Below, in pieces: positions 23,961 to 45,606 of a stretch of 64,000 nucleotides of DNA. The notes under the pieces are model-generated. The model was not told the DNA's origin. It was given only the letters and a program-made list of their open reading frames with translations, and made no database searches. Positions within the stretch are counted from its first letter, which is position 1, and every line of letters starts with the position of its first letter. This stretch comes from a virus: the IMG/VR virus record IMGVR_UViG_3300042303_000421, positions 15,655 to 79,654 of that record. One strand, given 5' to 3'. The position numbers and the translations under genes were made by a program.

Positions 23961-25637
23961 ATGAACAAAATAACAACTTACAATGAAGGTGGTACACATT
24001 CCACTAACCCAAATGGTGGAATTCCTATGGGTACAAGTCCTGAAGGGGCACAAAATACTGTAGAGCAAGGAGAAGCTAGAATGGGTGATATGATATACTC
24101 TAATAGAATTCCTTTATCTCAAGAAGCTGTAGAAGCTGTAGGATTACCTCGTAAATTTGCAGGTAAAACTCCAGGTCAAATTATGTCTTTAATTGATAAA
24201 ACATTTAAAGATAGAAATGATCAGCCTTCACAAGCTACTAAAAAAGATATTGCTGATAAAGTTGCACAAGCTCAAGAGATGATTAAAGCTCAACAAGAAG
24301 CTATGCAAACACAATCACAAGAAGTACCTGATATGATGAATGGTGAAATACCTGAAGGTATGAATCAATTTGTACTTGGTGGTGATATAACACAAGGTAC
24401 ATTACCTTTAGGAGGTTTAGATGATTTAGCTGGAGGTTTAACTAGTTTAGCAACAGGTAATAAAGATCAAGCTTTAACTCAAGGTATAACAGGAGGACTT
24501 ACTTTAGCTGGTACAGCTATTGGTGGACCAGTTGGTGGATTTATAGGTAAAACAATTGCTGATATTGGAACAGGAATTATAAATGGAGAAAAAGCTAAAA
24601 AAGAAGCCCAAAAACAAGCAGTTGTTGATGCTAAAATATTAGGTTCACAATATACGTCTGATTTTGCATTAGGTGGTAATATGTATGAAGGTGAAGGTCC
24701 TTTAGGATTTCGTAAATCTACAAGTACAATACCTCAAGTTGGAGCACCAATTGGTAAAATACTACCAACTGTAATGAATCAAAATATTCGTAGACAAGTA
24801 ACACCAGTTAATTCATTAAAAGTTGATAATAAAACATTTACAGCTAATGGTCCTGTACTAACTGATAAAAGTCAATTACCTCAAATTGGACAATCTACTA
24901 CTACTGAAAATAAATTTAATTGGAAAAAAGTAGGAGATGAAGTTAAAAAAAATTATCCTCACGTATTAAGAGCTGCTCCAGTAGCAATGAATCTTGCAGA
25001 ATTAGCTAGACTTAAAAAGAATGGTTACGATAAAGTAAATCCTGTTTTAAATGATACTAGATTTAAACCTGAATATATTGATGAGAAATCATTAGTTAAT
25101 TTAGCTAATAGTGAAATGAATAATTCTATAAATGCAATTAGTCAAATGGGAGGTTCGCAAGGAGCTACTAGAAACGCTATAATTGCAGCAGGATTAAATA
25201 AAAATAAAGCTTTAAATCAAGCAATGATTGAAGCTCAAGGTAAAAATATAGCAACTAATCAATTTGGTCAACAATTTAATAATCAAAATACTGAAGCTAA
25301 TATAGCACGTACAGTAATGGCTGAAGATTTAACAGCTCGTAATAAAGGTGCTTATGAAACTAATAGAAGTAAATTAGTTGGTCAATTAGGTACAGATATA
25401 GGTTCTATTGGAAAAGAAGAAGTATTTAAAGATATTGCAGAAAATATGACAGGTTATACTTGGTTAGGAGAATATTTAAAAATAAATCCTAATGCTACTG
25501 AAGAAGAAGTAAAAGCTGCTGCACAAGAAGAAGTTAAAAAGAAAGGTACAACTTATTTTAAAAATAGACCTTCAATAGATACATCACCAATTACCACAGG
25601 AGCTTATGGTGGTAAAATGAAATTTAAAAAATATTAA
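23961..25637 (+). CDS. Ejection/cargo protein 1
   Basis: GGTH..NP.GGI..G...N.VE.GE N-terminal motif, Gly-zipper hydrophobic segment; no Cys. Confidence 0.7.
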   Translation: MNKITTYNEGGTHSTNPNGGIPMGTSPEGAQNTVEQGEARMGDMIYSNRIPLSQEAVEAVGLPRKFAGKTPGQIMSLIDKTFKDRNDQPSQATKKDIADKVAQAQEMIKAQQEAMQTQSQEVPDMMNGEIPEGMNQFVLGGDITQGTLPLGGLDDLAGGLTSLATGNKDQALTQGITGGLTLAGTAIGGPVGGFIGKTIADIGTGIINGEKAKKEAQKQAVVDAKILGSQYTSDFALGGNMYEGEGPLGFRKSTSTIPQVGAPIGKILPTVMNQNIRRQVTPVNSLKVDNKTFTANGPVLTDKSQLPQIGQSTTTENKFNWKKVGDEVKKNYPHVLRAAPVAMNLAELARLKKNGYDKVNPVLNDTRFKPEYIDEKSLVNLANSEMNNSINAISQMGGSQGATRNAIIAAGLNKNKALNQAMIEAQGKNIATNQFGQQFNNQNTEANIARTVMAEDLTARNKGAYETNRSKLVGQLGTDIGSIGKEEVFKDIAENMTGYTWLGEYLKINPNATEEEVKAAAQEEVKKKGTTYFKNRPSIDTSPITTGAYGGKMKFKKY

Positions 25638-25639
25638 TA

Positions 25640-27493
25640 ATGAATAGATATACAAATATGTCCGTTTCTGCATATGATCCGTTATCACTACAAGAAGTAT
25701 TAATGGCCCCAGTTATGAAACGTCAGCAACACGATCAAACTTCTGCTCAATTAGGTGCATTAGAAGCTGAATTAGCTAAAATAGATCCTTTAGATGTTCA
25801 TAATGAATATGCTAAAGCTGAAAGAGCTAAATTAGCTGATAAAATAAATCAACAAGCTGAGTTATTAAATAAACAAGGTTATACAAATAATACTAAAGGT
25901 GATTTATTAAAATTTAATAGAGAATTTCAAGAAACTATATCACCTACAGGTACAATAGGTCAAATAAATCAAGCAAAAGTAGTACACGATCAATTATACA
26001 AAGATTGGATGTCTACAGAAGAAGCTAAGAAAGCAGGACCTGAAGTAGCTACTCAACGTTGGTTAGAACATAGAAAAAAATATGCTGATGATTTTGGTCT
26101 TAATCAAAAAGTTAAACCAATTGGTCAAATGGTTGCTCCTAAATTTCAAGATTTAGAAGCAGATATAAAAGATTTTATGACAGGTTTAGGTGAAACAACT
26201 AAAGGTTGGATTACAAAAAACGGTTATGGTTTTGATGAAGGTCCTGAAGGTACTTTAATTATGGTTACAGAAACAGGTAAAAGAGTTACAAGTGATAATG
26301 TAAAACAAATTGAAAGTGCTACACAAAGACTTGCTGAAAAATGGATTAAAGAAAATGCACCAGGTCGTGAGTGGGCAGATTTTACAAGTACAGATAAAAA
26401 TTATATTATAAATCAAATTAATTTAGCTGCTGGTTCTAAAATTAAAACTAAAGTAGATGATTCTTTATCTACAGGTAGAACTTGGAAAGGTGATTTAAAG
26501 AAAAAAGAAGAAGAAAATTCCAATGTACCTTCAGTTACAGAACCTGTAGTTGAATTTAATAATAACAAAACAAATTTAGCTTCTTCTTTAAATAAATTAG
26601 GTCAATATAAACCTTCTGTAACAAATGTTAGAATTACTAGTACTGGTCCTGGAGGATTTAATACTAAGGAATCAGCTGCAAATGGTGTTTATACTGAAAA
26701 AGATTTAAGTAAATCTGAGTTAGAATATTATGATACTATGTATAATGCTATGAAAAATAGTGGTCAAATAGATGCTAAAGAACCTAAGTTTTCTAAAGCT
26801 AATGTTACTAAAATCCAGCAATATATTAAAAATACACAAAATTATTCTTTTTCTAATAAAATATTAAAACCTACAGCGGTAGATAATAATTTACAAAAAC
26901 CTTTAGTTTTTACATCTAAAAAAGGTACAGATATGAATACTCATCTTTTACAAGAAGTTTCTTCAGGTAGAAGAACTTTAATAGACAAAGATTCTCAAAA
27001 AACAATTGATTTATCTAAATATCCAAATTATAAAGTAGAATATGTAGGAATGGTTTCACCAGATAATGTTTTAACTAAAAATGATAAAACTACTTTTAAT
27101 GATGATTCTTTTGTTTTACCACATGTTGTACAAATTACATATAAAGAAGGTGGTGTAGAAAAAAGAAAAGAAGTTTACATGGATAGAGATTCTGAAGAAA
27201 TTAAAAAACCAGAATTTAAAGCTTCTAAAACAATTAAAAATATTACATTAAAAGGAAAACAAGCTCCTGGTTTAATTAATAAATATGAAGATAAAACTTT
27301 AAACGAAATTGGTTTAAAAGAAATTGAAAGTGTTTATGTAGCTGAACAAGATGGATATATTGTTAAATATAAAAAAGCTAATGGTGAAACCTATCAAGAA
27401 ACAGATGATAATGGTAATCCTTTAGTATTACCTTCTGAATATGTACAAAATCAAATTTATGAAATGTACGATAGAAGATTTAATAAAAAATAA
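25640..27493 (+). CDS. Ejection/cargo protein 2
   Basis: NRY......YDPLSLQE...P N-terminus; position; no Cys. Confidence 0.6.
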   Translation: MNRYTNMSVSAYDPLSLQEVLMAPVMKRQQHDQTSAQLGALEAELAKIDPLDVHNEYAKAERAKLADKINQQAELLNKQGYTNNTKGDLLKFNREFQETISPTGTIGQINQAKVVHDQLYKDWMSTEEAKKAGPEVATQRWLEHRKKYADDFGLNQKVKPIGQMVAPKFQDLEADIKDFMTGLGETTKGWITKNGYGFDEGPEGTLIMVTETGKRVTSDNVKQIESATQRLAEKWIKENAPGREWADFTSTDKNYIINQINLAAGSKIKTKVDDSLSTGRTWKGDLKKKEEENSNVPSVTEPVVEFNNNKTNLASSLNKLGQYKPSVTNVRITSTGPGGFNTKESAANGVYTEKDLSKSELEYYDTMYNAMKNSGQIDAKEPKFSKANVTKIQQYIKNTQNYSFSNKILKPTAVDNNLQKPLVFTSKKGTDMNTHLLQEVSSGRRTLIDKDSQKTIDLSKYPNYKVEYVGMVSPDNVLTKNDKTTFNDDSFVLPHVVQITYKEGGVEKRKEVYMDRDSEEIKKPEFKASKTIKNITLKGKQAPGLINKYEDKTLNEIGLKEIESVYVAEQDGYIVKYKKANGETYQETDDNGNPLVLPSEYVQNQIYEMYDRRFNKK

Positions 27494-27495
27494 TT

Positions 27496-30400
27496 ATGGA
27501 AAAAGAAAAAGAATTTGATCCTTTTAAAGTATTATCTAAATCTACATATGATCAAAAATTTACATCACCTATGTCTAAAACTACAGAAAGTGGTTCTGGA
27601 GACATGTATGGTTATAATGTTGGATTAGGTTCTTCTAAATATGATAAAAATTTATCTCCCACTACAAGTATTGAGTTTAATGATTTTGTAGATTCTTTAG
27701 AAGACTATAGATCTAAAAATCAACCCTGGATAGATAAAGCAGGTGCAGGTTTAGCTAGAGTAGGACTTAAAGTAGGTGTAGAATTAGCTAAAATGCCAGG
27801 ATTTATTGGTGGTGCAATAGCAGCTCCATTTGCTGAAGAAGGTCAAGGTTGGGAAACATTTGTTAATAATTCCTGGGTTAAATCATTAAATAATTTAAAT
27901 CAAAAAATTAATAATGAGTATTTACCTGTATATGTTAAAAAAGCTGTAGCAGAAGGTAATTTATGGGCAAATATTACATCTATTGATTTTTGGGCTACAG
28001 ATGGTGCTGATGGTATAGGATATATTGTATCTATGATGGCACCAGGAGCTATTTTAAAAGGAATTGGTGTAGGTAATAAATTAGCAAAACTTGGAGCAAA
28101 TGAAAAACTTTTAAAAGTTTTAAATAGAGCTGATCCTTTACTTTCTGCACAAAAAGGAGATGTTATTACTGCAACAATTGCAAATACTATGTTTGAATCT
28201 GCTGCTGAAGCAGGTAATGCTATGGAAAATTTTGATAAAACTAAAGATACTTTTATACAATCACAATTATCTAAAGGTTTAACCGCAGAAGAAGCAGAAC
28301 AAACATTTACTGAACAAAAAGCTAGATTAGGTAGAGATATATTTATAGCAAATACTGCTATTTTAATGGGTCCCAATGCTTTACAATCAAACATGTTATG
28401 GGGTCGTACAGTTAATAAAACAGCCACTGAAGTTTTTGATAAAAAAGGTACTTTATTACAAAACGTGATAAATCCTCAAATATATAAAAAAGTTAGTCGC
28501 AGACTTGGAGATATTGGTAAAGCAACAATTTCTGAAGGTTTATGGGAAGAAGGAATGCAGATGAGTGTTGAACATATGTTTACTAATTCAGCTAAAAAAG
28601 GTCAGTTAACTAATAATATGTTTAATGATTTTAATTTAGGAGAATTAGGTGATGCTTATTTAAATACTATCTCGTCTACTGAAGGTCTAAAAGCAATGTT
28701 TTTAGGAGCTTTTTTAGGTGGTGGTATGCAAGCATTTAGTGGAGGTAAACAAGATATTAGAGATAGAAAAGCAACACAATCATTATTAGATGTAGCACAT
28801 ACATCTATTGATAGTTATTATAAAGCTTTAACTGAAAATGTATATAATGAAGATGGTTCTGTTAATGTAACAAAAGCAAGATCTAAAGTAGCTGCTTTAA
28901 AAAACTTAGAAACTTTAGACGAAATGTATCAAAATGCATTAGCTAAAGGTGATTTTGAAGTTCTTGAAGAATTAAGAGATATTGCAGGTTCTCAACTTGC
29001 AATGGGTTTTATAATGAATGATAAATTAGGACTAGAAGTTTTAAGAAAGCATTTAGAAGAATCTACTCAATTAGAAGAAGTATTACAAAAAGAACAAGAG
29101 TTAGGTAATAAAGTTTCTAAAAAAGATATTGTAGAGCGTGTAATGTCTAAAGCAACTTTAATGGAAAACGCTTTAAGTAATTTTCAAAAGTTTGCACCAT
29201 CATTATATAATCCTACATTTAAAGATGAATCTTTAACTGAAGAAGTTAAACAACAAAAAACACAAGAGTTTAGAAAGGTTTTAGCACAAAATTATTTAAC
29301 TAATAAAGTAGTTAAAGATATTTATAATAAAAAAATTAAAGAACTCGAAAAAGATAAAGCTCAAATATTAGCAGATTTAGGTTATTCATCTAGTGTCAAT
29401 TTAGATTTAGATAATTATACTGTTGATATAGAACAAGCAAATAAAGTTGATAAAGATGTTTTAGAAACTTCTGATGAGCGTTTACGTAAAGTAACAGAAG
29501 ATTTAAAAGAATTAAAAGAAGAATTTCAACAAGTTGATAAATTAGATAAATTATTTTGGAATAAAGAAAGAATTCAAAAAGATTTTGATAAATATAACAA
29601 TCAAGTTAAAAAAGATGAGAAAGCTGTTACACCTGAAAAATTAGAACAATATGATTCAGTATTAGGTGAAATCGCAGAAATAGAATCAATTAAAGAACTT
29701 GAAAGTTATGCTAGAAATCTTAAAGAAGAATATCAGACAAATCCTGTAATACTTGATAAGTTAGCTGAACATAAAGTAGCTTTAGAAACAGCATTAGAAC
29801 TTAAAAAAGCAAAAGAAGAAGCTGATGTAATTCAAGAAGATGAAGAACAATTTGAACAAGATGAAGTTATTGGTACTACTACAGTTAATACTGATACTAA
29901 AAGTGCTACAGATATAACAATTGTTACAGATTTAGAAACATTACAAAATTCTGAAACTTCAGAAGTAGAAGATACTATTGAAGATCCTAATAATTTTTTA
30001 GAATTAAAAGAAAATACAAATCCTGAATTTTCAGATAAAAATCAAAGTGCTGCTAGAATTATTAGTACTTATCAAGATACTGGTGAATCAATTCCAGGAT
30101 TAGAATCATTTGTAGAATATGAAAAAGAAACACGAAATAAAACAAATGATAAAGTTACATTTAGTTTAGGTGATTTAACACAACAAAAACAAGATCAATT
30201 AATGAGTTCCATATTAGATAAATTAAAAAATGATGGTACATTAAATGATAAACAAATTGAAATGTTAGAAAATTATTTACTTATTAAAGTTACACTTTCA
30301 AATGGTACTAAATCAGCATCATCTTTTATAGATTCAATGTCACATCCTAATCCTGATATAGTAACTAGAGAAACATTACCTTTACGTAAAGCTATTATAA

Positions 30401-32049
30401 AGGCTTTAGTAGACAATCAAGGTAGTTTTGAAGGTATAGAAGGTAAAGTAGATAAACAGTTCACAGGAGTGCTTAAAATAGGTGAGCAAGGTGGTAGTAT
30501 ATTAAATCTTGCAGTATTTGAAGGAATGACCGAAAAAGAAAAGATTAATTACTTTAAAAAGAATACCATATATGTAGGTAATAAAGGAATGGTTAAACAT
30601 ACGGCTACTGATTTACCAGTTCATAATTTAAATCTTAAAGCTAGAAGTAAAGGTGAAGTATTTTTACTTATACCTATGATTAATGGTGAAATGTTTCCTT
30701 TAAAATTAAACACTAATAAATTAAGTGATGAAAAAGCATCAGCTACATTAGATTTAATTATATTACGTTCAAGATTATTAAGTCAAAAACAAGATATGAC
30801 TTTTGATGAATTACAAGAGTATATTACTAATAATGATTTAGGAGCTATTCAAACTGAATTTGATTTTGTTAAACGTGAAGAAGATAATATTGATCAAACT
30901 TTAGAAAGACTTATTAACTTTATAGTATTTTCTCAAAATACAAATACTAAGACTAGATTAGAATTAAAACCTAATGGTGTTTTATTATTAGGAGAATTAC
31001 TTCATAAATTTAATGATAAATTACCTGCATTTGATGGAGATAAAGTAAAACATTATTATTATACTAATGAAATACTTGAAAGTTTATCTGGTGTACAAAG
31101 ACAATCATTAATTGATTATTTAAAATATAAAAGACATAATGTATTAATTACTAAAGATGGTAATGCTACATTTAATAATGATGCTTATATTAAATATTTA
31201 TTAGGAACTGAAACAGGTTATTCTGTTTTATCTACTAACGCAATAACTAATGAACCAACATTTCAAGGTTATTCAAATATTTATTTAAGTCAATCAGTTA
31301 CTAATAAAACAGAACCTAAAATTAAAAAAGCTGAAGATACTGATGATACACAAAGTCTTTTAGATAGTCTTAATTATGGTAATATTGTAGAAGAACCTAT
31401 AACTACTCAATCTGAAATAGAAGCTAAAAAAGCTGATATAGAAAGAAGATTAGGAATAAAATTACCTGTAAAAAACACTTCTCTACCTGTATCTTCTAAA
31501 ACATGGGGAGATAGAAAATCTCTTGCAAATCAATTATCTTCTGAATTAAAAGGAGTAGTTGAAAGAGGTGTATCTATGCAAGAATGGTTAGATAAAGGAT
31601 ATGGAAGACAATTAGCTACTTGGACAGACGAAACTATTATTGAGTTTTTAGAAGTAGCTGATATAGAAAAAAGAAGACAAGAAAAGTTAGAAGCTTATAA
31701 ATTAAAAAAAGACGGAACTCCTAAAAATGAAGCAGAATTAACCAAAGTATATGCAATAGATGATGTTAGAATTATCAATGCTAAATATGATGCAGAACTA
31801 AAAACATTAGAAACTCAAAATGTTCTTCCTACAGCTAATATTAATCAACCAGTATTAACTACTGAAAGTGAATTAGTTACCAAATTTAATAGTTTATCAG
31901 AAACTCAACAACTTGAAACAATTGAAACTTTAGCTGAAAAACTTAATAAACCTATTGATTCTTTAGTTGGTGAATCATTCATTGAAATGTTTAAAGAATT
32001 AACAAAAGGTGTAGAAAATAATAAAATTATAAAAATATGTGGATTTTAA
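27496..32049 (+). CDS. Large ejection/cargo protein 3 with predicted TM segments
   Basis: 1517 aa; hydrophobic Gly-rich segments, ESA.EA and SEG.WEEG.Q motifs; single Cys at residue 1515. Confidence 0.65.
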   Translation: MEKEKEFDPFKVLSKSTYDQKFTSPMSKTTESGSGDMYGYNVGLGSSKYDKNLSPTTSIEFNDFVDSLEDYRSKNQPWIDKAGAGLARVGLKVGVELAKMPGFIGGAIAAPFAEEGQGWETFVNNSWVKSLNNLNQKINNEYLPVYVKKAVAEGNLWANITSIDFWATDGADGIGYIVSMMAPGAILKGIGVGNKLAKLGANEKLLKVLNRADPLLSAQKGDVITATIANTMFESAAEAGNAMENFDKTKDTFIQSQLSKGLTAEEAEQTFTEQKARLGRDIFIANTAILMGPNALQSNMLWGRTVNKTATEVFDKKGTLLQNVINPQIYKKVSRRLGDIGKATISEGLWEEGMQMSVEHMFTNSAKKGQLTNNMFNDFNLGELGDAYLNTISSTEGLKAMFLGAFLGGGMQAFSGGKQDIRDRKATQSLLDVAHTSIDSYYKALTENVYNEDGSVNVTKARSKVAALKNLETLDEMYQNALAKGDFEVLEELRDIAGSQLAMGFIMNDKLGLEVLRKHLEESTQLEEVLQKEQELGNKVSKKDIVERVMSKATLMENALSNFQKFAPSLYNPTFKDESLTEEVKQQKTQEFRKVLAQNYLTNKVVKDIYNKKIKELEKDKAQILADLGYSSSVNLDLDNYTVDIEQANKVDKDVLETSDERLRKVTEDLKELKEEFQQVDKLDKLFWNKERIQKDFDKYNNQVKKDEKAVTPEKLEQYDSVLGEIAEIESIKELESYARNLKEEYQTNPVILDKLAEHKVALETALELKKAKEEADVIQEDEEQFEQDEVIGTTTVNTDTKSATDITIVTDLETLQNSETSEVEDTIEDPNNFLELKENTNPEFSDKNQSAARIISTYQDTGESIPGLESFVEYEKETRNKTNDKVTFSLGDLTQQKQDQLMSSILDKLKNDGTLNDKQIEMLENYLLIKVTLSNGTKSASSFIDSMSHPNPDIVTRETLPLRKAIIKALVDNQGSFEGIEGKVDKQFTGVLKIGEQGGSILNLAVFEGMTEKEKINYFKKNTIYVGNKGMVKHTATDLPVHNLNLKARSKGEVFLLIPMINGEMFPLKLNTNKLSDEKASATLDLIILRSRLLSQKQDMTFDELQEYITNNDLGAIQTEFDFVKREEDNIDQTLERLINFIVFSQNTNTKTRLELKPNGVLLLGELLHKFNDKLPAFDGDKVKHYYYTNEILESLSGVQRQSLIDYLKYKRHNVLITKDGNATFNNDAYIKYLLGTETGYSVLSTNAITNEPTFQGYSNIYLSQSVTNKTEPKIKKAEDTDDTQSLLDSLNYGNIVEEPITTQSEIEAKKADIERRLGIKLPVKNTSLPVSSKTWGDRKSLANQLSSELKGVVERGVSMQEWLDKGYGRQLATWTDETIIEFLEVADIEKRRQEKLEAYKLKKDGTPKNEAELTKVYAIDDVRIINAKYDAELKTLETQNVLPTANINQPVLTTESELVTKFNSLSETQQLETIETLAEKLNKPIDSLVGESFIEMFKELTKGVENNKIIKICGF

Positions 32050-32083
32050 TTTGGAATTGTCAAATAAATTTCGTATATTTGTA
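32050..32083 (+). promoter_or_regulatory. Bacteroidota-type promoter
   Basis: TTTG 32050, 20-nt spacer, TATATTTG 32074-32081. Confidence 0.72.
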
Positions 32084-35000: not shown

Positions 35001-38000
35001 CATGATGAAGTTTATAAAAAAATGATTTCTAATAATATTGAACAATATACTGAAAAAGAATTAAAAGTTGCAGCACAACCTTTAAAAGGTGTGTATTTCT
35101 TTAGAGATAATAGTGGTAAACCTACATATCTTAAATATTCACAAGCAGTATTAACTAAATCATTAATACAAGATTCTGATTTAGAAAAAGTATTCAATCA
35201 GATGGAAGTTGATAATGTTGATGAATTGATTACTTTTGATGGTGTTAAAGTTGGAGCAATTGAACCAACTAAAATACATGATGAAAATGGTAATGTTGTT
35301 CAAGATATTAAATATAATGTACAAACACTATCTAATTATGGTTGGAAACTTCAACAAGATTTACCAACTAAAACATATAAAGATACTGATGTAGGTTCTC
35401 AGATTCAAAAAAATATATTTGCAGGATTATTACATTTACAAAACGATACTAATTTTGAATTAGATGGTCAATTAGTAAGTGGTAAATATGTTAAAGATGA
35501 AATTGTTAAAACTATTACAGGTTTAACTAATCAAGGTTTAGAATCTCTTAAAAAAGAATTTAAAATTGATGATGATTTTAGAATTGGAGATATTTCAGGA
35601 TTTTATAATGCATTAATTTCTGAATTACAAAAACGTGGTGGTTCTGAAAATGTTATTAAAGCATTACAATCAGAAGTTACAATTGTAGGTATTCCTCAAT
35701 CATCTGAAAAGTTATTTAATATGTTTGCTTCAATTATGAATAGTAGACTTGTTAAAATTAAAACTAATGGTGGTTCTTTTATTCAAATGAGTAACTTTGG
35801 TTTAAATAAATCTGAAGCTGATTCTAAAGGTGTTATATGGCATCCTGAAGCATTATCTACAGTACATGAACCACATATATATATTCATCCTGAAACATTA
35901 AGACCAACAGTAAGACCTGGTGGTGTTTTAATATCAGGAAGTTTTATAGCTAAATATATTCCTAATTGGAAAAGTTATGATGAAGTAGAATTATTTGTAG
36001 GTAAAGATGGTAAACCACCAATTATAGATAAAAAAATACAAGATAACATTATAGGTTATCGTATTCCTAATCAGGGTTTAGCTTCTAATGATGCTTTACA
36101 AATTGTAGGTATATTACCTGAAACATCTGGAGATACTATTGTAGCTTATACAGGTATTACTACTAAAACTGGTTCAGATTTTGACGTTGATAAAATGTAT
36201 ATAATGTTTCCATCTTATAATAAAAAAGACAAACAACTTATATATAAAGAAAATGATTTAGGTAACAGATTAATAGAATTATATAAATCTGTGTTAACAC
36301 ATCCTGAAGTTTATAAATCTGTAATGAAACCTATTGATATTGAATTTATTAAAAATGAAATTAATACTTTATTTCCAGAAACAGATTCTGTATTTATGAG
36401 TCATTTTGACCCAGAAGTAGATTTAAAACTTAGATATTATTTTTTAGGTGGTAAAGCTGGTGTTGGTCAAGAAGCTAATGCTTTAGTTGATATTAGTAGA
36501 GAAGGTAAACTTTCTTTAAATGATATTAAATATATAACTTGGGGTCATCATAACACTGAAGGTGAAAGTGCTTTTGATTTTGAATATTCTGAAGAATTAT
36601 CTGATAAAGACTTAGATTATTATGTTAAACAAATAGTTAAAAGTACTGCTACTCAAAAAGAAATTGATGAATTTAAAAATGAATTACGTAAAGTAAAAGT
36701 AGGTGATTCATTAACAGCAATTCTTAATGCGTTTGTGGATATTGCAAAAGACCCATATATATCTAAAGGTAACTGGACAACAGCTACAACTAATATAGGT
36801 AATCTTTTATTACGTATTGGTGCACATCCTTTATATGTTGTTAACTTTTTAGCTAATCCTGTAATTGCAGAATATATTGAGTATTTAAAATCTAAAGAAG
36901 GTATTACTAATACTGAAAAAGATTTAGGTTCATTAGATAGTTTTAAAAAGTTTAAAAAACATATTGTTAAAACAGCTTTAAATGCTTCTACACCTGAAAG
37001 TTCAAATACTTTATTGGGTAATTTATATTTAGATTATTATAAAAATTTTAATATTGATTGGCAAAAAGAAAAGCTTTCTCAAGATCTTAAAAATAATTTT
37101 GTAACTAAAGAACAATATGATAAAGAAATAATTAAATTAGATAATTCATTTAATACTTCAAAAACAAAAGTTAAAAAACTTTTAAAAGTTTCAGATGAAG
37201 AAATTACAAATATTATTAATTTAATGAATCAACAACATTCTAAAGTATTTTTACATGAAAAATATAGTGTATTTAATAAAGATAGATTTGATTTAGAATA
37301 TTTTAGAAATCAAGTAACTACAACTAAACCAGATTCTGAGTTTAGAATGAATATTTTAAATACTTTTAAAGAATTAAATGAGTTTAGTAAGAATGTTAGA
37401 GAAAATGTAATGGTTTCTAAACTAGATACTGATGGTATGGGTAAAGATCATAATAAATTATTCACAATATTTAATATGATACAAATTATTAATGATAAAG
37501 TTGAAAATAATGTACCAGGAGCTATTAAAGGCTTTAATAGTAAATTTGAAGGTACAACACTAGAAGCATATTATAATAGCTTAAAATGGGTTAAAAACGT
37601 TGTAGAAAGCAATCCTTTATTATTTCCTACAGGTACAATTCAAACTAGACAACAATTTAATGAAATTTCTCAAGATGTCTATAGTAGTTTATTAACTAAT
37701 GAAGAAATGAGTAATGATTTAAGTAGAGAATATAATTCTTATTTAATGGAACAATTCTTTAATATTACTAAAGAAGAAAAGTTAGATTTAATTGATAATT
37801 TACCTAATAGATTTAAAGAATTTAAAGAAGCTAATAAAGATAAGTATTTTATACTTGATGAATTAACATTAGATATTCCTAAAAGTAAAAAACGTAAAGC
37901 TATTATTTCTTTAACTAATAGAAAGAAATCTAAAGCATATGAAAAAATATTTACAGATTCTTGGAGAGATTTATTTATAGATAATCCTACATTAGCAGAA

Positions 38001-40079
38001 GATTTAGTTAAATATTCTTTTGTTACTTCAGGATTTAAAATGAATGCAACACAATTTTATACATACATACCATTTGAATATTTTGTTCAAAATCAAATTA
38101 ATAGTAAAGTTAATGATATTATAAATAATAACACATTTGACTTTTTAGATAAGTTTTACTTAAATAAATTAGAAAATAAAAAATATGTTAAAAAAGTATT
38201 TGATAATAATTTAAATTTAGCAATTGGTACTAATGTTGTTAAAAAAGACAATGGTTTTAAATTAGAAAAAGGTTCTAAGTATTATGTAGAATTAGAAGTT
38301 AAAATTCCAGATAATGCTCCTGCTGATTTTGTACCAAAACTTAAATATTATAAATTGGTTGGTTTTAATAAAAATGAAGACGGATTATATGTTAGAATTA
38401 ATAATACACCATTATCTTTAAATAAACGTAAATTAACAGACTATAGTGATAATATATTTGATGATGTTATTAATGAAGAAACACAATACATTAAATCACA
38501 AGTAATATTTGATAGAAATATGAATAAAATAAATGATATTGTTGATGATGTTATTGAAACTACAGAAGTTCAACCTCAAGTTCAACCTCAATCTAATAAA
38601 ATATTATTTAAAGAAGAACTAACATTAGGATATAAAAATAGAACTATTAAAAATGCTAGTGCAGATGCTACAATAGCAATAGCAATAGATTTTAATAGTG
38701 CTGGAGAAAGATTAACTAAATCATCTGTATTAAGTCAAAATAAAAAATATATTTCTTTAGATGCTAGTAATTTAACTGTTACACAAGAAAGAGTTGATAA
38801 AATAGTAGAACAATTAAACTCTGCTAAAGAATATACTTCTGAAAATATAACTTCTTTAAAACCAAATGAAGTATTTGTATTTGGTAGTAATGCAGAAGGA
38901 GTTCATGGAAAAGGTGCTGCATTATTAGCTAAAACTAATTTTGGAGCTAAACAAAGTCAATCAGAAGGATTACAAGGACAATCTTATGCAGTTATTACAA
39001 AGAAAAACTGGAGAGTTGAAAAATCTTCTACATTAGAAGAAATTGGTAAAGGACTACAAGATATGTTACTATTTGCTAAACAAAATCCAGACAAGAAATT
39101 TTTAGTTACTAAACTTGGTAGTTCATTAGCAGGATATTCAGTAGAAGAAATTAAAGAATTATTTGAGAAATTAAAAAATATTATTCCAAATAATGTTATT
39201 TTACCTAAAGAATATGAAATTAGAGGAATAACTTTAAATATTGCTGGTAATGGTATTTATACTATGAAAGGTAAATATACTCAGCAGCAAGTTGATGATT
39301 TTACATATAATTTATTAAAAGCTGTTATTGAATCTCCAAATCTTAAAACTAAAATAGAAAGTATTAGAAGTGGTGGTCAAACAGGTTTTGATGAAGCAGG
39401 TACAAAAGCAGGTATTAAATTAGGTTTACCAACATTAACTTTAGCTCCTAAAGGTTGGACTTTTAGAGATATAACAGGTAAAGATATTTCTAATGAACAA
39501 CAGTTTAAAGCTAGATTTGGTGAAGTAATTACTCAACAACCTCAATTAGTTGAAAATATTTATAATCAATTAGGAAATAAAACAGTTTCTAATAATGTAG
39601 AAATATTAGATTGGAAAGACTTAAAAGAATATGATGCACCAATTGAAAAAGATCTTGAAGGAAATTTAGAATTTATTATTTCTACCAGAATACCTAAAGT
39701 TTTTAATCATTTTGGAAATCCTTTTAGTCATGATCCAGCAGGTAAAACTCAAGGATTAATTAAAACAGAAACTATAAAAGAAGCTGTTGAAAAATATATT
39801 GATTGGGTTATTAATTCAAAAGATGATAGAGCTGAATGGATTAGAAAACAAATTCAATCAGGTAAATTAAAAGGTCTACCTATTTTGTACTATAAAGAAT
39901 TAAATCAACCTTCTCACGCTACAGCTTTAGATTATTTAATAAATAAACATAATTGGAATATTGAAACAAATAATCAACCATCTCAATTATCTTTATTTCC
40001 AGAATTATCTGAACAAGAATTTAATAACTTAACTGAAGAAGAACGAGCTACAATTTTGTGGCAAAAAAATAATTGTTAA
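32097..40079 (+). CDS. Virion-packaged DNA-dependent RNA polymerase (two-barrel, phi14:2 gp66-like) with C-terminal accessory domains
   Basis: 2660 aa; catalytic GSDFDVDKM (36177-36191), YRIPNQG, DAQAWIT, QPLKG, KYS, VDIAKDP. Confidence 0.93.
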   Translation: MKCKRIAYTGKAESILFDTIYDKIANQNEKVAEELFAYFGKESFIEDFGDYLQDYKNNKYDSNRIDENGEPALFYDDTAKKHYYLNKNNEKVYFPLVDRGLRAIYSYKQIAKIKSRLALNYFKNSGLDFNNIEFSEGESLPNLRNFIIKEITDKATELKEQGGVSLLKARSLERSLKYVDELVENVENFFRELSIEIIENEEDTSFLEEEGRDPSFNQHSAERNTKDNISANVKLRLSLLEDPNTLDPIWNEPTFLDRDMVYSTLQSVLSNEIALPSEDLFENYKTYLSRVQDKKPYLKGLLEYLNKVTSENQKSEFVQAFNLIKNNHIVTQFEITKRVVNEETGETEMFVEHRSLPISDTGSKITVVKDAWDINFQNNFLTADNTLKTGSIERLNKASNVLKQYFKDSELLTEDNVEGFEILANKSIKFLETLGVNLTKEGFDNFIDNFGKDITFNDRLKNLKTLINQTEYVVNGIKTKYSYKSEDYSSFIGLSQTLTKLASSEAFFLNEGSDATIVTSSSTGKSKQKWIYSYPSYVSTKVKQWKKNPKLLLDLYKSGNYQLGSFYMGVLTGTINNKGEKLNLEEKDQLELSKKILEGLDVAIMNQMSSDSEYKETTNLSYKDYLVDYVNKVLKEDDFIRTTTPADKTTELQIKTGIRLNSFNGLNQDKKINIRPRTLDIFFNYFSSEYNRMLEANQDVINAETNPEKYKLTPHYHYQYEIKDKNGNKIINPNPYDKSGNAFKSQYFEKLSPNSKGQTNLEDQITNLLYDNKGNFNFQKLTRESSEELNSLFNQYITTNLRSRIEQTISYLQANEVFIRNKEGIIVPNKIDSKILTSGAYRNVSAAQKAIAFATDFIINGLVSNVEYSKMFTGDVAFYKNMVDYKKRVPASYTDGLQLRITQGNEFFNIATIESVYRKSPFYDLLVESLSEEGARPYENINSADAQAWITPKRWKFLIQALGKWTKVHDEVYKKMISNNIEQYTEKELKVAAQPLKGVYFFRDNSGKPTYLKYSQAVLTKSLIQDSDLEKVFNQMEVDNVDELITFDGVKVGAIEPTKIHDENGNVVQDIKYNVQTLSNYGWKLQQDLPTKTYKDTDVGSQIQKNIFAGLLHLQNDTNFELDGQLVSGKYVKDEIVKTITGLTNQGLESLKKEFKIDDDFRIGDISGFYNALISELQKRGGSENVIKALQSEVTIVGIPQSSEKLFNMFASIMNSRLVKIKTNGGSFIQMSNFGLNKSEADSKGVIWHPEALSTVHEPHIYIHPETLRPTVRPGGVLISGSFIAKYIPNWKSYDEVELFVGKDGKPPIIDKKIQDNIIGYRIPNQGLASNDALQIVGILPETSGDTIVAYTGITTKTGSDFDVDKMYIMFPSYNKKDKQLIYKENDLGNRLIELYKSVLTHPEVYKSVMKPIDIEFIKNEINTLFPETDSVFMSHFDPEVDLKLRYYFLGGKAGVGQEANALVDISREGKLSLNDIKYITWGHHNTEGESAFDFEYSEELSDKDLDYYVKQIVKSTATQKEIDEFKNELRKVKVGDSLTAILNAFVDIAKDPYISKGNWTTATTNIGNLLLRIGAHPLYVVNFLANPVIAEYIEYLKSKEGITNTEKDLGSLDSFKKFKKHIVKTALNASTPESSNTLLGNLYLDYYKNFNIDWQKEKLSQDLKNNFVTKEQYDKEIIKLDNSFNTSKTKVKKLLKVSDEEITNIINLMNQQHSKVFLHEKYSVFNKDRFDLEYFRNQVTTTKPDSEFRMNILNTFKELNEFSKNVRENVMVSKLDTDGMGKDHNKLFTIFNMIQIINDKVENNVPGAIKGFNSKFEGTTLEAYYNSLKWVKNVVESNPLLFPTGTIQTRQQFNEISQDVYSSLLTNEEMSNDLSREYNSYLMEQFFNITKEEKLDLIDNLPNRFKEFKEANKDKYFILDELTLDIPKSKKRKAIISLTNRKKSKAYEKIFTDSWRDLFIDNPTLAEDLVKYSFVTSGFKMNATQFYTYIPFEYFVQNQINSKVNDIINNNTFDFLDKFYLNKLENKKYVKKVFDNNLNLAIGTNVVKKDNGFKLEKGSKYYVELEVKIPDNAPADFVPKLKYYKLVGFNKNEDGLYVRINNTPLSLNKRKLTDYSDNIFDDVINEETQYIKSQVIFDRNMNKINDIVDDVIETTEVQPQVQPQSNKILFKEELTLGYKNRTIKNASADATIAIAIDFNSAGERLTKSSVLSQNKKYISLDASNLTVTQERVDKIVEQLNSAKEYTSENITSLKPNEVFVFGSNAEGVHGKGAALLAKTNFGAKQSQSEGLQGQSYAVITKKNWRVEKSSTLEEIGKGLQDMLLFAKQNPDKKFLVTKLGSSLAGYSVEEIKELFEKLKNIIPNNVILPKEYEIRGITLNIAGNGIYTMKGKYTQQQVDDFTYNLLKAVIESPNLKTKIESIRSGGQTGFDEAGTKAGIKLGLPTLTLAPKGWTFRDITGKDISNEQQFKARFGEVITQQPQLVENIYNQLGNKTVSNNVEILDWKDLKEYDAPIEKDLEGNLEFIISTRIPKVFNHFGNPFSHDPAGKTQGLIKTETIKEAVEKYIDWVINSKDDRAEWIRKQIQSGKLKGLPILYYKELNQPSHATALDYLINKHNWNIETNNQPSQLSLFPELSEQEFNNLTEEERATILWQKNNC

Positions 40080-40080
40080 T

Positions 40081-43000
40081 ATGAATTGTATAAACATAAA
40101 CGACTCAAAGTATAAAGAGTTATTAGAACAAACAAAATTAAATCCATTAATCCTGAAGGCTAGAATTTCTATCTTTCAGGATAAAAATGGTTTAGAATCA
40201 TTTCCTAAATTAGAAGATGTTATTCAATCTAATGAAGTTAATCAAAGTTTAAAATCTGTTGATATATTATCTTCTGATAAAGCAAAACAAATTTTTGAAA
40301 AAGGTAAAAAGTCTAATTGGGATTTAAATAAAATTTTAACAGAGCTGCAGATCCCTAAAGATCAAAAACAATTAATATTGGATTTAGATAAAACTAATAG
40401 AGAAGAAATCATTACAGACCTATTAGCTAAATATAGTTATACTATTGAGATTAATACTGCTAAAGAACAAATTAAAACTGGTACAAAAAAAGTTCAAGGT
40501 TCTCCTATTAAGTATTATTCAAAATCTGAAAATAGATATTATAGAGATACTGAAGAATTAGGATGGATTAGTTCTGATGAAAATAATAAAAATCAAGAAG
40601 TAGATGTTCAAACACCAGAAGATTTAGAACCAATTGAATTTGATACTTATAATATTGATACTTTTTCAGAATTAGAAACTAAACATTACTCTAACCTAAC
40701 AGTTCCAGGTGGTACTAATTATACAGAAAATGAAATATCTACTCCATTAATTACACCTAGTATTAAAGGTCATGCTCAATTTAGTACTGATAAAGGTATA
40801 GGTTGGTTTAGAAGTGACGAGCAGCAATCTAATAATGACTTAGAAGAACAAAGAGAAGAAGAAGAATATCAGATAGCTAATAATCCAAACTATGTAAAAG
40901 GAAGTATTCAATTTGAAAAGGGAGAGGGCTCTAAAACTCGTAGAATACTAGAAGTACAATCAGATTTATTTCAGAAGGGTAGAGATAAAGATTATTTGCC
41001 TAAATATCCTTTTAAAAGCAATGATAATAAATTTCTTCAACTTCTAAACAAAGATAATAATTGGGTAACATTCTTTGTTAAATCTATTATACAAGATAGT
41101 GTTAAGAAAGGATATGAAAAAATATTATTTCCTTCTGGTAATACAGCTAGTAAAGTGGAAGGTCATACTACTTTAGAAGAGTTTAAGAAACAGAAAGAAG
41201 ATAGGTTAAAAGAGCTTGAGGATAAAGTTAATAAAGGTAGATATGTACTTACTGATAATACTGGGTTTCCAATGGGTATAGCTCCAATAGATTCTGACAT
41301 CAATGTATTAAAAAGTAATAATCCAACATTAAAAATTGAAAAAGAGTCTTTGACGCAAAAAGAATTAGATGATACAAATAATGAAATAAACCAACTTAAA
41401 CAAGAACTTGAAAGAGTAGAAGGACCAGAAGGATTTGGTGCATTAAAACCTATCTATAACTTCTATGAGAACACTGTAAAGAATGTTCTTAATAAACAAT
41501 ATGGTAAAGAAAATGTAAAACAAGTTACTGATGAATATGGTAATACTTGGAATGAATTAACTTTAGAAGAAAGTAGAGATACTTCAACTATTTTATTTAA
41601 TAAAAAAGATTTAAATGATTTTGTTGGAGATAATTCAAAACCTTTTTTTCCAGAAAGTACAACAAATCAACCTCAAGTAAATAATAGATTTCAAATAAAT
41701 AAAGAATTATTATTTAATGATAAAAATATTAATAATTCTTTTAAAGCTAAAGATGTATTACAAAATATAATTAATTCTAATTTAGAATTTTCAGATGCTG
41801 GTAATAATTTAGTATTTAAAGCAATGAATGTTTTAAATCGTTCTAATAGTAGAGTTAAAGTTATTAGTCAAGAACAATTTGATAAAATGACTGAAAATTC
41901 TGAAGGGAACGGAACTGCTGTAATGGCTTATGAATCAGAATTAAATGTTATTTATACGACAGAAAATTCTTTAAGTATTTTTACAAAAGAACAAATATTA
42001 GAATCATTTTTACATGAAGTTGCTCACAATTTAAGTATTAAAGCAATTATTAATCCTGTAACTTTTGAAGAAATACAATTTAATGAATTAATTAAAAAAG
42101 CATTTGAACAATATAAATATTTAGGTAAAAATTTAAAAGGTTCCAAAAGCTATGGTTTTACAAATGAAAAAGAATTTGTAGCAGAATTATATTCTAATGA
42201 AGAATTTCAAAATGAAATTAAATCATTAGATAAAAACTTTTGGCAACAATTTAAAGACGCTATTAGAAGATTATTTGGATTAACTAAATCATTACAAAAT
42301 AATGAATTAATTAATAGTATTTTATTAATTGAAAATGTTGAAAAATTTATTGAAACTAGTCAACAATCTTTAGACGGTTTAGCTAGAAATGATTATTCAA
42401 ACTCTTTTAATAACATAATGTTTAAAAAAATAGAACAACCTAAAGAAATTGAATTAGATACTTTAGATAAACAATTAAATTATACTATTGAAAAAGCGTT
42501 AGATAAAATTGATGCAATTATTCGTAGAACCAAAAAATCTAAAAATTCTAAAAACAAACAAGATAATGAAGCTTTTGTAAAATCTTTTACTGAATTATTT
42601 AAAGAAATTGAAACTTTAGAAAATACTAATAAATGGCAAGCTGTTAATGCATACGTTACTTCATTTTCAAAAACAGTATTTCATTTAAATCAAATGTTAA
42701 AAACTAAATTATATAATAAAGATACTGAAACATTTAATAAAGATATAAGTTCTGAAGAAATGTTAGACTTATCTTATAGATATGAAGAATATCTTACTGC
42801 GTATGATTTATTAGAAGATATTAAAAAGTTATTACAAACAAGTGAAACTGATGAATTTGTTACTAAACAAAATCAGATAGAAATAAATAAAATTAAAGAT
42901 ATTTTAGCTAATTTAACTAAAGATCATAATAGTTTAACTGGAATAATATTAAATATTAAAAAAGCACATGCTGTAAAAATGATGTCTGAAGCTGATTTAA

Positions 43001-45606
43001 ATACAGAAGTTGTTGCTAAATGGAGAAATAAATTATTTCAAGAACATACTGATTTAAAAATTACAAATGAAACCAAAGAAGCTTATTTTGGTAGAATGAT
43101 TGAAGGTAAATATAAAGATGAATATAATAAAGCTTTAGTTGCTAATGCTCGTAAAATAGTTAATGATCCATCTTTTGATATTGAAAGTGTTACTCGTTCT
43201 GTTGTAGATATTTTAAACACCAATTCACCATTATTAAACATGATGTCTAATGTAATTGGTAAAATGAGAGATTCTATTATTTCCGCAGCAAGAACTAAAA
43301 ATTTTGAAATAGATAAAGTTTATAAAAAATATTCTGCTGAAAAAGGTCAAAATAAACAATCTCAAATGTATAAAAATCTTGTAGAATTATCTAAATCAGA
43401 TGATAGATATTATTTACATGGAGAATATTCTACAACATATTTAGATTCATTTAATAGTTTACAACCTGTATTTAAAGCACGTAAAGAGTTAGTAGCTTTA
43501 AAATTAGCAGAAGGTTTAACTAATTCACAAATTAAAAAATTACCTGAGTATAAACTTTTAAATAAACAAATAGCAAATTGGTTTAAAGCAAACACTATTA
43601 AAGTTGATGGTATTACTTATCCAAATCCTAAATATAAAAATAAAGAATTAACAGGTATTGAAAAAGAAACATTAGATTATTTTATTTATGAAACTGAAAA
43701 AAATGATGATTCTTATAATGGTACAGCATCTTTAATAACTTTAATACCTGGAGCTACATTTTATAAATTACCTTCAGTTACTAAAAGTGATTTAGAACGT
43801 ACATTAGAAGGTGATATTAAAGGTCAGTTTGTAGATAAATGGAAAGATTTAAATGAAGTACGTGTTGATGATGTTAGTTATGGTGAAGCAATTAATAATA
43901 AAAATGAAGAATTACGTACTGTAAGAGTTCATTATAGAGGTAAAATAGAATCTAAAAATCAATCATTAGATTTATTTACAGTTTATCGTAAAGAAGCTTT
44001 TAATGCAATTAATTATGCTGAAAAGAAAGAAAATGAATATAAACTTAAATTGTTTGTAGATATTGCTTCTAGTAAACAATATAAGAAACGTTCAAAATCA
44101 GGAGGATGGGCTCAAAATGTATTTGCAACTAAACAACCAGGTGTTATTGTAGAAGGTGAATTTAGTGAAGAATTAAAACGTATTAAAGGTTTACTTGAAA
44201 GTACTGCTTATGATATTTTATCATATAATGGACAAAAAGTATTAGGTACTAATATTGAAGCAAATAAATTATCATCATTAATTAATGGTACAGCAGCAAG
44301 TATTGCAATGACAATGAACTTAGGTTCTGGTGTAGTCAACGTAATGAACGGTGTTACACAAATGTTTATTGAATCTGTTGGTGGTAGAAATTTTAAAAAA
44401 GCAGATTTATTAAAAGCTGAAGCTAATTATAGTAAAAACTTAATGAATATTTTAGCTGATTTAAATGAACCTGTTAAAAAATCATTTCATAATCAAATGT
44501 TAGAAATGTTTGATGTATTTGGAGGTTTTGATGTTTCTACTCAAGAATTTTTAAGAAATTCATATGCTAAGAAATTAATTTCCAAACAACAAATGAATAT
44601 GTTAAATGAAATGGGTGAACATATGATGAACTCAGTTTTAACAGAAGTTATGTTAAGAGGAATTAAAGTAATGAATGAACAGCGTCAATTTATTGATAAA
44701 TCAGGAAATGTTGTAGAAGAATCAAAAGCTGCTTCATTATTTGATATGTTATCTTTAAATAAAGATGGTGTTTTAGAAATGGATAGTAAAGTTGTTTATA
44801 CTCTTAAAAATTTAGATTCTAAATATCATGAAAGTGGTAAATATCATATTAATTATGTTATTAAGAAAAAAGCTCATGATATATTTGGTGTTTATGATCC
44901 ATTAATGAAAGCTGAAATAGCTAAACATTGGTGGGGTAAAACAGTTTTAATGTTTAAGAACTTCTTTTTATCAGGACTTAAATACAGATATCAAGGTATT
45001 AGTAAATCTTTAAAGAAAAAAGAAGATTTAACTGATGATGATATAGTATTTAATAACGCTGAACAGGAGTTCACAGAAGGTACTTATGTTACTTTTATTA
45101 GATTTGTACGTAATGTTGTTTTTCCTGCATTAAAAGGGCTACAATTAGCTCATATGAGTGATGGTTATAATAAGTTAACAGACTATGAAAAAGCTAATTT
45201 AAGAAAAACTACATTAGAAGTAGGTTTAACTATGGTATTGTTACCGATGTTAGGTTACTTATTAGCATCTCTTGGTGGAGATGATGATGATAAACCATAT
45301 TTTGCATTATATGTATTTAGAAGATTAGAGTCAGAACTTTCACAATATAGAAATCCTATAGAGTTAAATAGAATGATTCAAAATCCTGTAGCAGCTAATA
45401 GATTTATTCAAAATTCATTAAATGCTTTAGGTGAAATAATTACACCACTTAATTTTAATCCTGGAAATAATGAATATTTGTTTGATTATTTAAGTGAAGA
45501 TTCTAAAGGTAAAAATAAAGTAGTTAAATCTATTAAGAAAATTACACCATTTTATGCTCAATTTCAAAAACCATATAGAGAAATGCATAATCTTATAAAT
45601 AAATAA
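40081..45606 (+). CDS. Large ejection/cargo protein with zincin metallopeptidase and polyvalent-type domain
   Basis: 1841 aa; LHEVAH...EFVAE zincin; PGG.NY.E...WFR.D...EVQSD domain; C-terminal hydrophobic segment. Confidence 0.75.
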   Translation: MNCININDSKYKELLEQTKLNPLILKARISIFQDKNGLESFPKLEDVIQSNEVNQSLKSVDILSSDKAKQIFEKGKKSNWDLNKILTELQIPKDQKQLILDLDKTNREEIITDLLAKYSYTIEINTAKEQIKTGTKKVQGSPIKYYSKSENRYYRDTEELGWISSDENNKNQEVDVQTPEDLEPIEFDTYNIDTFSELETKHYSNLTVPGGTNYTENEISTPLITPSIKGHAQFSTDKGIGWFRSDEQQSNNDLEEQREEEEYQIANNPNYVKGSIQFEKGEGSKTRRILEVQSDLFQKGRDKDYLPKYPFKSNDNKFLQLLNKDNNWVTFFVKSIIQDSVKKGYEKILFPSGNTASKVEGHTTLEEFKKQKEDRLKELEDKVNKGRYVLTDNTGFPMGIAPIDSDINVLKSNNPTLKIEKESLTQKELDDTNNEINQLKQELERVEGPEGFGALKPIYNFYENTVKNVLNKQYGKENVKQVTDEYGNTWNELTLEESRDTSTILFNKKDLNDFVGDNSKPFFPESTTNQPQVNNRFQINKELLFNDKNINNSFKAKDVLQNIINSNLEFSDAGNNLVFKAMNVLNRSNSRVKVISQEQFDKMTENSEGNGTAVMAYESELNVIYTTENSLSIFTKEQILESFLHEVAHNLSIKAIINPVTFEEIQFNELIKKAFEQYKYLGKNLKGSKSYGFTNEKEFVAELYSNEEFQNEIKSLDKNFWQQFKDAIRRLFGLTKSLQNNELINSILLIENVEKFIETSQQSLDGLARNDYSNSFNNIMFKKIEQPKEIELDTLDKQLNYTIEKALDKIDAIIRRTKKSKNSKNKQDNEAFVKSFTELFKEIETLENTNKWQAVNAYVTSFSKTVFHLNQMLKTKLYNKDTETFNKDISSEEMLDLSYRYEEYLTAYDLLEDIKKLLQTSETDEFVTKQNQIEINKIKDILANLTKDHNSLTGIILNIKKAHAVKMMSEADLNTEVVAKWRNKLFQEHTDLKITNETKEAYFGRMIEGKYKDEYNKALVANARKIVNDPSFDIESVTRSVVDILNTNSPLLNMMSNVIGKMRDSIISAARTKNFEIDKVYKKYSAEKGQNKQSQMYKNLVELSKSDDRYYLHGEYSTTYLDSFNSLQPVFKARKELVALKLAEGLTNSQIKKLPEYKLLNKQIANWFKANTIKVDGITYPNPKYKNKELTGIEKETLDYFIYETEKNDDSYNGTASLITLIPGATFYKLPSVTKSDLERTLEGDIKGQFVDKWKDLNEVRVDDVSYGEAINNKNEELRTVRVHYRGKIESKNQSLDLFTVYRKEAFNAINYAEKKENEYKLKLFVDIASSKQYKKRSKSGGWAQNVFATKQPGVIVEGEFSEELKRIKGLLESTAYDILSYNGQKVLGTNIEANKLSSLINGTAASIAMTMNLGSGVVNVMNGVTQMFIESVGGRNFKKADLLKAEANYSKNLMNILADLNEPVKKSFHNQMLEMFDVFGGFDVSTQEFLRNSYAKKLISKQQMNMLNEMGEHMMNSVLTEVMLRGIKVMNEQRQFIDKSGNVVEESKAASLFDMLSLNKDGVLEMDSKVVYTLKNLDSKYHESGKYHINYVIKKKAHDIFGVYDPLMKAEIAKHWWGKTVLMFKNFFLSGLKYRYQGISKSLKKKEDLTDDDIVFNNAEQEFTEGTYVTFIRFVRNVVFPALKGLQLAHMSDGYNKLTDYEKANLRKTTLEVGLTMVLLPMLGYLLASLGGDDDDKPYFALYVFRRLESELSQYRNPIELNRMIQNPVAANRFIQNSLNALGEIITPLNFNPGNNEYLFDYLSEDSKGKNKVVKSIKKITPFYAQFQKPYREMHNLINK

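Follow-up and report, generated by a model that had tools for sequence, protein, structure and literature searches.

Cysteines at the facing ends of crassvirus RNA polymerase cargo proteins follow gene splits and fusions and suggest an end-to-end link

In the human gut no other phages are as abundant as the crassviruses, which must deliver over 0.6 MDa of protein through a narrow tail, among it the polymerase with which infection begins. The question of how this is done is raised by a stretch of 64,000 nucleotides, here called the window (positions 15,655 to 79,654 of the 79.6-kb IMG/VR virus record IMGVR_UViG_3300042303_000421), whose plus strand carries a virion module of the crassvirus type. 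The module encodes a giant virion RNA polymerase (RNAP) flanked by two other giant proteins, and the only cysteines (Cys) of these three proteins are found at the ends where one protein faces the next. Related loci keep the pattern. We consider it probable that the three giant proteins are joined end to end in the virion through a bond between these terminal Cys, most likely a disulfide. The features of the window that bear on the question are as follows.

23961..25637, + strand: cargo protein 1, 558 amino acids (aa), no Cys (Pfam crAss_CARG1, E 1.2e-20; BLASTP to crAss001 gp45 residues 439-572, E 4e-14)
25640..27493, + strand: second cargo-block protein, 617 aa, no Cys (positional counterpart of crAss001 gp46)
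27496..32049, + strand: upstream giant protein, 1517 aa (BLASTP to crAss001 gp47, E 1.6e-8, and to a 1797-aa protein of phi14:2, E 1e-10)
32038..32040, + strand: tgt codon of Cys1515 of the 1517-aa protein, two residues from the end, in the tail ..KIIKICGF before the stop (codon read directly)
32097..40079, + strand: virion RNAP of the two-barrel type, 2660 aa (phmmer to PDB 6VR4, phi14:2 gp66, E 1.2e-207 over query residues 2-1378; BLASTP E 6.5e-163)
32103..32105, + strand: tgt codon of Cys3 in the RNAP N-end, MKCKR.. (codon read directly)
36177..36191, + strand: DFDxD catalytic motif of RNAP, residues 1361-1365 (motif match)
39867..40076, + strand: C-terminal 70 residues of RNAP, the proposed docking tail, ending ..ERATILWQKNNC (Cys is the sole invariant column among 34 aligned relatives)
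40074..40076, + strand: tgt codon of Cys2660, the last RNAP residue, ..KNNC before the stop (codon read directly)
40081..45606, + strand: downstream giant protein, 1841 aa, with HExxH at residue 645 (BLASTP to a 1421-aa protein of phi14:2, gp65 by gene order, E 7e-107, and to crAss001 gp49, E 1e-30)
40081..40245, + strand: N-terminal module (about 55 residues) of the downstream protein, MNCININD..FPKLED, the proposed docking partner (alignment)
40087..40089, + strand: tgt codon of Cys3 in the downstream protein N-end, MNC.. (codon read directly)

The five cargo open reading frames (ORFs) total 7,193 aa and, counted on the translations, hold only four Cys: none in the 558-aa and 617-aa proteins, one in the 1517-aa protein, two in the RNAP and one in the 1841-aa protein. 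That these four sit at the facing ends of consecutive proteins had been noticed in an earlier model annotation made without database searches (the sequence-only reading), and its coordinates, lengths, counts and codons are all confirmed. The proteins of 558 and 617 aa are both without Cys and are not members of any cysteine chain. The remaining phage proteins have an ordinary Cys content of 0.4-6%. The window has 46 further ORFs on the coding strand, of which two have a Cys eight residues or fewer from the N-end and two have one at this distance from the C-end.

Might the arrangement be an accident, or might it merely accompany a nucleotide signal placed where two genes meet? The TGT codons of the window do lie close to stop and start codons. 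The chance that four random Cys among 7,193 residues all fall within three residues of any of the ten termini is 2.5e-10. For one Cys on every facing end, four in all, it is 7e-13; both are post hoc figures.

Relatives were found by alignment of the RNAP core. The comparison set consists of 85 related IMG/VR loci and of crAss001, p-crAssphage ZA (L088 in the set), crAss002 (L089) and Flavobacterium phage Fpv1, with duplicates removed before counting; phi14:2 (KC821624) is present as locus L032. A query with the C-terminal 499 aa of RNAP was discarded, as it mostly matched promiscuous small domains in unrelated phages. Approximately 40 human-gut loci were translated with TAG read as glutamine (TAG=Q: L044, L046, L049, L051, L053, L054, L056-L067, L069-L086); these lineages have 41-72 in-frame TAG codons in a polymerase ORF of 4,500-5,200 aa.

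Both the RNAP C-end and the N-end of the next protein have a Cys in all 53 of 53 distinct loci, and both the upstream C-end and the RNAP N-end in 25 of 27. The conserved set includes phi14:2, crAss001, p-crAssphage, crAss002 and Fpv1, and relatives with the pattern are as little as about 26% identical to the window in the RNAP core. The N-terminal Cys is residue 3 in 57 of 84 cases among relatives, and in 77 of 82 cases no more than three residues follow the C-terminal Cys. Where the last 70 RNAP residues and the first 65 residues of the downstream protein are aligned (34 relatives each), the Cys is the only invariant column. In a second alignment of the downstream N-terminal module C3 and P42 are invariant and N5 and Q33 nearly so, with divergence beyond about residue 55; a 350-aa alignment of the downstream protein was too gappy for use, and the conserved part is approximately the first 55 residues. 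The C-end motif K-x-C-G-[FIL] of the 1517-aa protein of the window recurs in relatives. The outer ends of the chain, i.e. the N-end of the first protein and the C-end of the last, never have a Cys in any lineage. Interior Cys are infrequent, amounting to 0.016% in the table-11 lineages (38 in 237,438 aa) and 0.17% in the TAG=Q gut lineages. Conservation settles the matter despite the post hoc nature of the chance figures: as judged from the comparison set, the terminal-Cys pattern is real and order-wide.

A motif at the DNA level was considered as a candidate and rejected. In crAss001 the first partner, gp47 (sole Cys at 2339 of 2341), is encoded on the strand opposite to gp50 and about 11 kb from the gp50 start, and the pattern is therefore not a DNA junction motif; gp50 has C5, C1334 and C2404 in its 2412 residues, and gp49 has its sole Cys at residue 5. 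At other loci the pair is kept across gaps of 500 nt, gaps between partners reach 6 kb, and both TGT and TGC are found at terminal Cys sites. In L022 (14179-19363) three Cys-containing genes encoding 781, 500 and 440 aa are inserted between the genes of RNAP and the downstream protein, both of which keep their terminal Cys. With partners on opposite strands, variable spacing, both codons in use, and a pattern kept at about 25% protein identity, an origin by chance or from a nucleotide signal has next to no probability.

The terminal Cys can be followed through changes in gene structure, with junction states defined by profile mapping and BLAST. Where both junctions are split there are two pairs, as in the window, phi14:2 and crAss001. 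Where the upstream protein and RNAP are fused (L038, L042, L045, Fpv1 and the gut TAG=Q lineages) the downstream pair alone is found; Fpv1 gp33, for example, has 4401 aa with its sole Cys at 4400, and gp34 has C3. Where RNAP is fused to the downstream protein, as in p-crAssphage ZA and crAss002, the upstream pair alone is present and the far C-end is without Cys. In the triple fusion L048, of 5002 aa, the terminal Cys are absent. There is also a locus (L003) with one extra break upstream, and it has one extra pair (..NLDC before the stop, then MNITC..). As judged from these loci, gain and loss of the terminal pair strictly tracks gene splits and fusions. The sequence-only reading had proposed in advance that terminal Cys be counted in Crassvirales orthologues and looked for where genes are fused, and its expectation is borne out by the counts at both junctions and by the bare ends of L048. 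On a rough tree made by FastTree, whose deep branches are long and unreliable, every junction state is found in two or more separate clades.

Several gene models bear on this rule. In the fused RNAP genes of p-crAssphage ZA and crAss002 an internal ATG yields MSC.., the N-end type of all relatives, and the annotated starts (L088 12875, L089 12326) are probably 21-32 codons too far upstream. In L009 and L010 (11335-12278) the RNAP gene is interrupted within the catalytic motif (..GSD / FDVDK..) by approximately 940 nt, and no Cys pair is found there. The gap gives group-I-intron-like Rfam matches that, at 33.5 and 25.2 bits, fall short of the gathering score (50), and it looks like a group I intron acting at the RNA level; absence of a pair is expected if the break is removed from the RNA. 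The locus L033 was considered as a fusion and rejected, as it has an ordinary N-end (MSKEC..) and its upstream gene is cut off by the contig end.

The Cys at each junction are gained and lost together and the outer ends are bare, and the simplest reading would therefore be that facing ends touch and join, forming a linear chain in gene order. The order upstream protein-RNAP-downstream protein appears to be the most parsimonious pairing and is the topology that the sequence-only reading had drawn.

At each junction a short C-terminal tail would dock on the N-terminal module of the protein that follows, where a Cys-Cys bond would lock it. Complex prediction for the RNAP tail with the downstream N-terminal module gave an ipSAE score of 0.38, versus 0.02 for the best control, with at least 90% contact agreement between runs and a partner pLDDT of at least 66. 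This result is graded 'weak support', a mark reached by 58 of 80 solved complexes and by 2 of 110 mismatched pairs. The proposal, also made in the earlier annotation, that the terminal elements dock is thus weakly supported at the junction of RNAP and the downstream protein.

The terminal Cys could alternatively act separately in each protein as a packaging, processing or stability signal of a free end, unpaired and lost on fusion together with the end. Fusion removes free ends, so end-specific signals would be expected to go, and the fixed position of the N-terminal Cys, at residue 3 in most cases, could suit N-end processing. However, the outer ends of the chain are also free yet are never found with Cys, signals at N-ends and C-ends would need to be lost and gained in step, and the complex prediction is weakly positive for contact. 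We know of no such free-end Cys signal, and give this explanation little credence.

A link of the type proposed here is known in cyanopodophage A4 (Anabaena phage A-4L), where the C-terminal helix of gp27 is inserted in gp26 and a Cys1715-Cys5 disulfide is seen by cryo-electron microscopy (cryo-EM) (PNAS 2025, PMC12002296). By sequence count, these two residues are the sole Cys of gp27 (1717 aa) and gp26 (1114 aa). As in crassviruses, the proteins are products of neighbouring ejection genes, and the only Cys of the upstream product lies two residues from its C-end and that of the downstream product at residue 5. In contrast, A4 has a single link; it joins two proteins of a T7-like core in which there is no RNA polymerase, and the disulfide is treated as a stabilising detail and not as a rule (PMC12002296). 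The crassvirus ends may work like the A4 clasp, with no detectable relationship to it. The remark in the sequence-only reading that it knew of no description of such a mechanism is out of date as far as a single link is concerned; new are the two proposed serial links with the polymerase in the middle, the rule kept across the order, and the interchangeability with peptide fusion.

It can be asked whether disulfides might form in some other topology, such as homodimers through identical ends, polymers of several RNAP copies joined C-end to N-end with the upstream and downstream proteins as caps, or links to other virion proteins, for instance portal or tail-barrel components. K-x-C-G-[FIL] and [IL]-K-K-C-K tails are found at either junction across lineages, and the N-ends of RNAP and the downstream protein are alike in L040, so that specificity is not proven. 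In addition, the Intestiviridae have cargo-1-like proteins with a near-C-terminal Cys and no evident partner. These are encoded upstream of the cargo block, with the Cys at 794 of 795 residues in p-crAssphage ZA (L088 1981-4368) and at 550 of 557 in crAss002 gp30 (L089 1631-3304), and the next proteins of these two phages have no facing N-terminal Cys. Joint loss and gain of both Cys at a junction, with Cys-free outer ends in every lineage, nevertheless best fit hetero-pairs at the junctions; the two junctions of the window differ in both tail and module sequences, and the A4 precedent is itself a hetero-pair of neighbouring gene products. Other topologies therefore appear unlikely.

A second question is the chemistry of the contact. 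The ends might dock head to tail with no disulfide, held by a shared metal ion, by other chemistry or by mere packing, and this would be a non-covalent tether. Comparative data show pairing and not chemistry, and gut phages live without oxygen. Next to the terminal Cys the Lys/Arg frequency is 24% versus a background of 13%, an enrichment of about two-fold that fits any reactive-thiol role. On the other hand, the usual zinc site needs more than one Cys from each partner, and the alignments have neither a conserved His or Asp nor a further conserved Cys in the vicinity. The sole solved analogue, that of A4, is a disulfide, and crAss001 virions have inter-subunit disulfides elsewhere in the particle (PMC10172136). 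By analogy with these, and because of the Lys/Arg enrichment, the bond between the terminal Cys is most likely a disulfide. We consider it rather improbable that the ends are tethered by other means.

In the proposed chain of disulfide-linked proteins, the C-end of the upstream protein would be bound to the N-end of RNAP, and the C-end of RNAP to the N-end of the downstream protein. The product would be unbranched, about 6,000 residues long, and would correspond to what other crassviruses encode as one polyprotein. Stray cross-links would produce loops or branches unable to pass the narrow portal-tail channel, and interior Cys would thus be purged, while links from end to end would keep the thread linear for passage through portal and tail. 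A disulfide, unlike a peptide bond, could be opened by the reducing cytoplasm of the host, and the polymerase would thereby be freed; fused forms would need a protease or would remain fused. One can go further and view the whole as a redox-cleavable pseudo-polyprotein, in which a terminal disulfide does the work of a peptide bond, the two being exchanged at each split or fusion, and in which the chain of up to about 6,000 residues is ejected whole, each protein pulling the next, and cut by the cytoplasm into active RNAP and its two partners. This extended proposal is tentative, and we would not be surprised to see it fail. It should be pointed out that bond chemistry and timing, ordered threading and reductive release are what we infer, ejection order and reductive release being conjecture.

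Published work is compatible with parts of this outline. RNAP-block proteins have been detected in virions by mass spectrometry (PMC10172136; bioRxiv 10.1101/2020.03.07.982082), with gp47, gp49 and gp50 all found in crAss001 virions (PMC10172136), and some phages encode these proteins as one polyprotein (bioRxiv 10.1101/2020.03.07.982082). Neither of these two sources names a link between the RNAP-block proteins, and fused forms were assumed to be cut by a protease. Our literature searches for a crassvirus account of an end-to-end link found none among the papers covered. The crAss001 study describes reduced versus non-reduced mass spectrometry in its methods only (PMC10172136).

A number of observations weigh against the joining of the three proteins by terminal disulfides. 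Many crassviruses inhabit the gut, which is anoxic, and it is uncertain how the bonds would form, spontaneous oxidation being less obvious there. The Cys is not always terminal in the strict sense. In the two exceptions at the upstream junction it belongs to a motif of the ..ICNG / ..MCGKG type, after which the protein runs on in a Lys-rich stretch, and the upstream Cys of these two lineages thus lies 31 and 17 residues from the end; in crAss001 gp50 the distance is 8 residues. In the gut TAG=Q lineages, which keep the junction pair, 4-17 interior Cys are tolerated, and strict purging is therefore not universal. Fusion and split events can be counted only as at least two of each, because the deep tree is poorly resolved. 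As to docking, the support from complex prediction is weak, and of the 80 solved complexes only 7 had a score of 0.60 or less. The A4 precedent is an analogy, because the terminal modules have no sequence similarity to gp26 or gp27 (hhalign probability about 0.1%); the upstream and downstream giant proteins likewise gave no PDB sequence match to A4 gp27 or gp26. Lastly, the cryo-EM structure of crAss001 leaves gp47, gp49 and gp50 unresolved (PMC10172136), and the Cys of these proteins are mentioned neither in the crAss001 paper (PMC10172136) nor in the phi14:2 gp66 preprint (bioRxiv 10.1101/2020.03.07.982082).

Thioredoxin genes have been annotated near the RNAP block of p-crAssphage ZA. Two are found on the opposite strand, about 2-3.5 kb past the end of the block (L088 27322-28601). 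A tie between these genes and reduction of the proposed bonds is speculation.

Coliphage N4 provides a useful comparison. As in the window, a giant capsid-carried RNA polymerase is ejected through a short tail and interior Cys are absent. Unlike the window proteins, which are Cys-free in the interior yet have four conserved terminal Cys, N4 gp50 (3500 aa), gp51 and gp52 are entirely devoid of Cys, termini included, and N4 can therefore have no such tether. The N4 polymerase is also T7-like and not of the two-barrel type.

Redox-switched virions are found among eukaryotic viruses. Examples are the capsid disulfides of polyomaviruses and papillomaviruses and the disulfide by which the pVIc peptide is attached to the adenovirus protease; such bonds are stable outside the cell and open or rearrange on entry. 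In these cases the bonds stabilise capsid lattices or activate an enzyme, and to our knowledge none strings ejected proteins into a thread.

If A4 represents the same principle reached independently, stringing by end-to-end disulfides may be a general means of ejecting several large proteins via a narrow tail. The sequence rule predicts a 1:1:1 covalent, reduction-sensitive chain in cultured phi14:2 and crAss001. It would explain the near absence of Cys in the giant proteins, the free tolerance of fusions and splits, and the role of the short conserved terminal modules. There is also a use in annotation: a true protein break would come with a Cys pair and an intron break without one, and the correct start codon would be that which yields M-x-C.

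As for the setting of the three giant proteins, two further genes of the virion module lie upstream of the cargo block.

18778-22851, + strand: muzzle protein (Pfam crAss_MUZ, E 6e-220)
22958-23896, + strand: GIY-YIG/NUMOD homing endonuclease gene, between the muzzle gene and cargo protein 1 (Pfam GIY-YIG, 2.5e-7; phrog_314, 1.5e-20)

The gene order muzzle, cargo 1, cargo 2 and three giant proteins is that of the crassvirus cargo block and is homologous to crAss001 gp44, gp45, gp47, gp50 and gp49. The products gp67-gp66-gp65 of phi14:2 and gp47, gp50 and gp49 of crAss001 are homologous to the three giant proteins and have the same order and the same terminal Cys pattern. By homology and gene order, the window proteins belong, as ordinary members, to the RNAP cargo block of crassviruses, and the window RNAP is presumably packaged in the virion and ejected, as its orthologues are found in phi14:2 and crAss001 virions. 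The DFDxD motif is the catalytic site according to the phi14:2 gp66 paper. Pfam and sequence searches detected no family or homology match for the 617-aa protein; an ORF of about 600 aa at this position has no Cys in nearly all relatives. The homing endonuclease gene looks like a mobile insertion into the virion module.

At its C-end the RNAP is prolonged by a long extension, in which residues ~2160-2480 (window 38577-39536, + strand) hold a cpYpsA SLOG domain (29.9 bits, cut-off 26.2) and two PHROG modules, phrog_2072 and phrog_10774. These modules are found as small stand-alone genes in more than 400 unrelated phages, and L001 and L003 have them in another order. It may be that they are accessory enzymes, carried on the polymerase and injected with it.

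Residues 2-150 of cargo protein 1 (window 23961-24410, + strand) align with crAss001 gp45 residues 439-572. This overlaps the part of gp45, residues 425-552, that has been resolved by cryo-EM on the portal wing. The window protein seems to be without the long N-terminal part that occupies the tail barrel in crAss001. The muzzle protein has seven Cys, and one of these sits four residues from its C-end (..HDIICYYTV).

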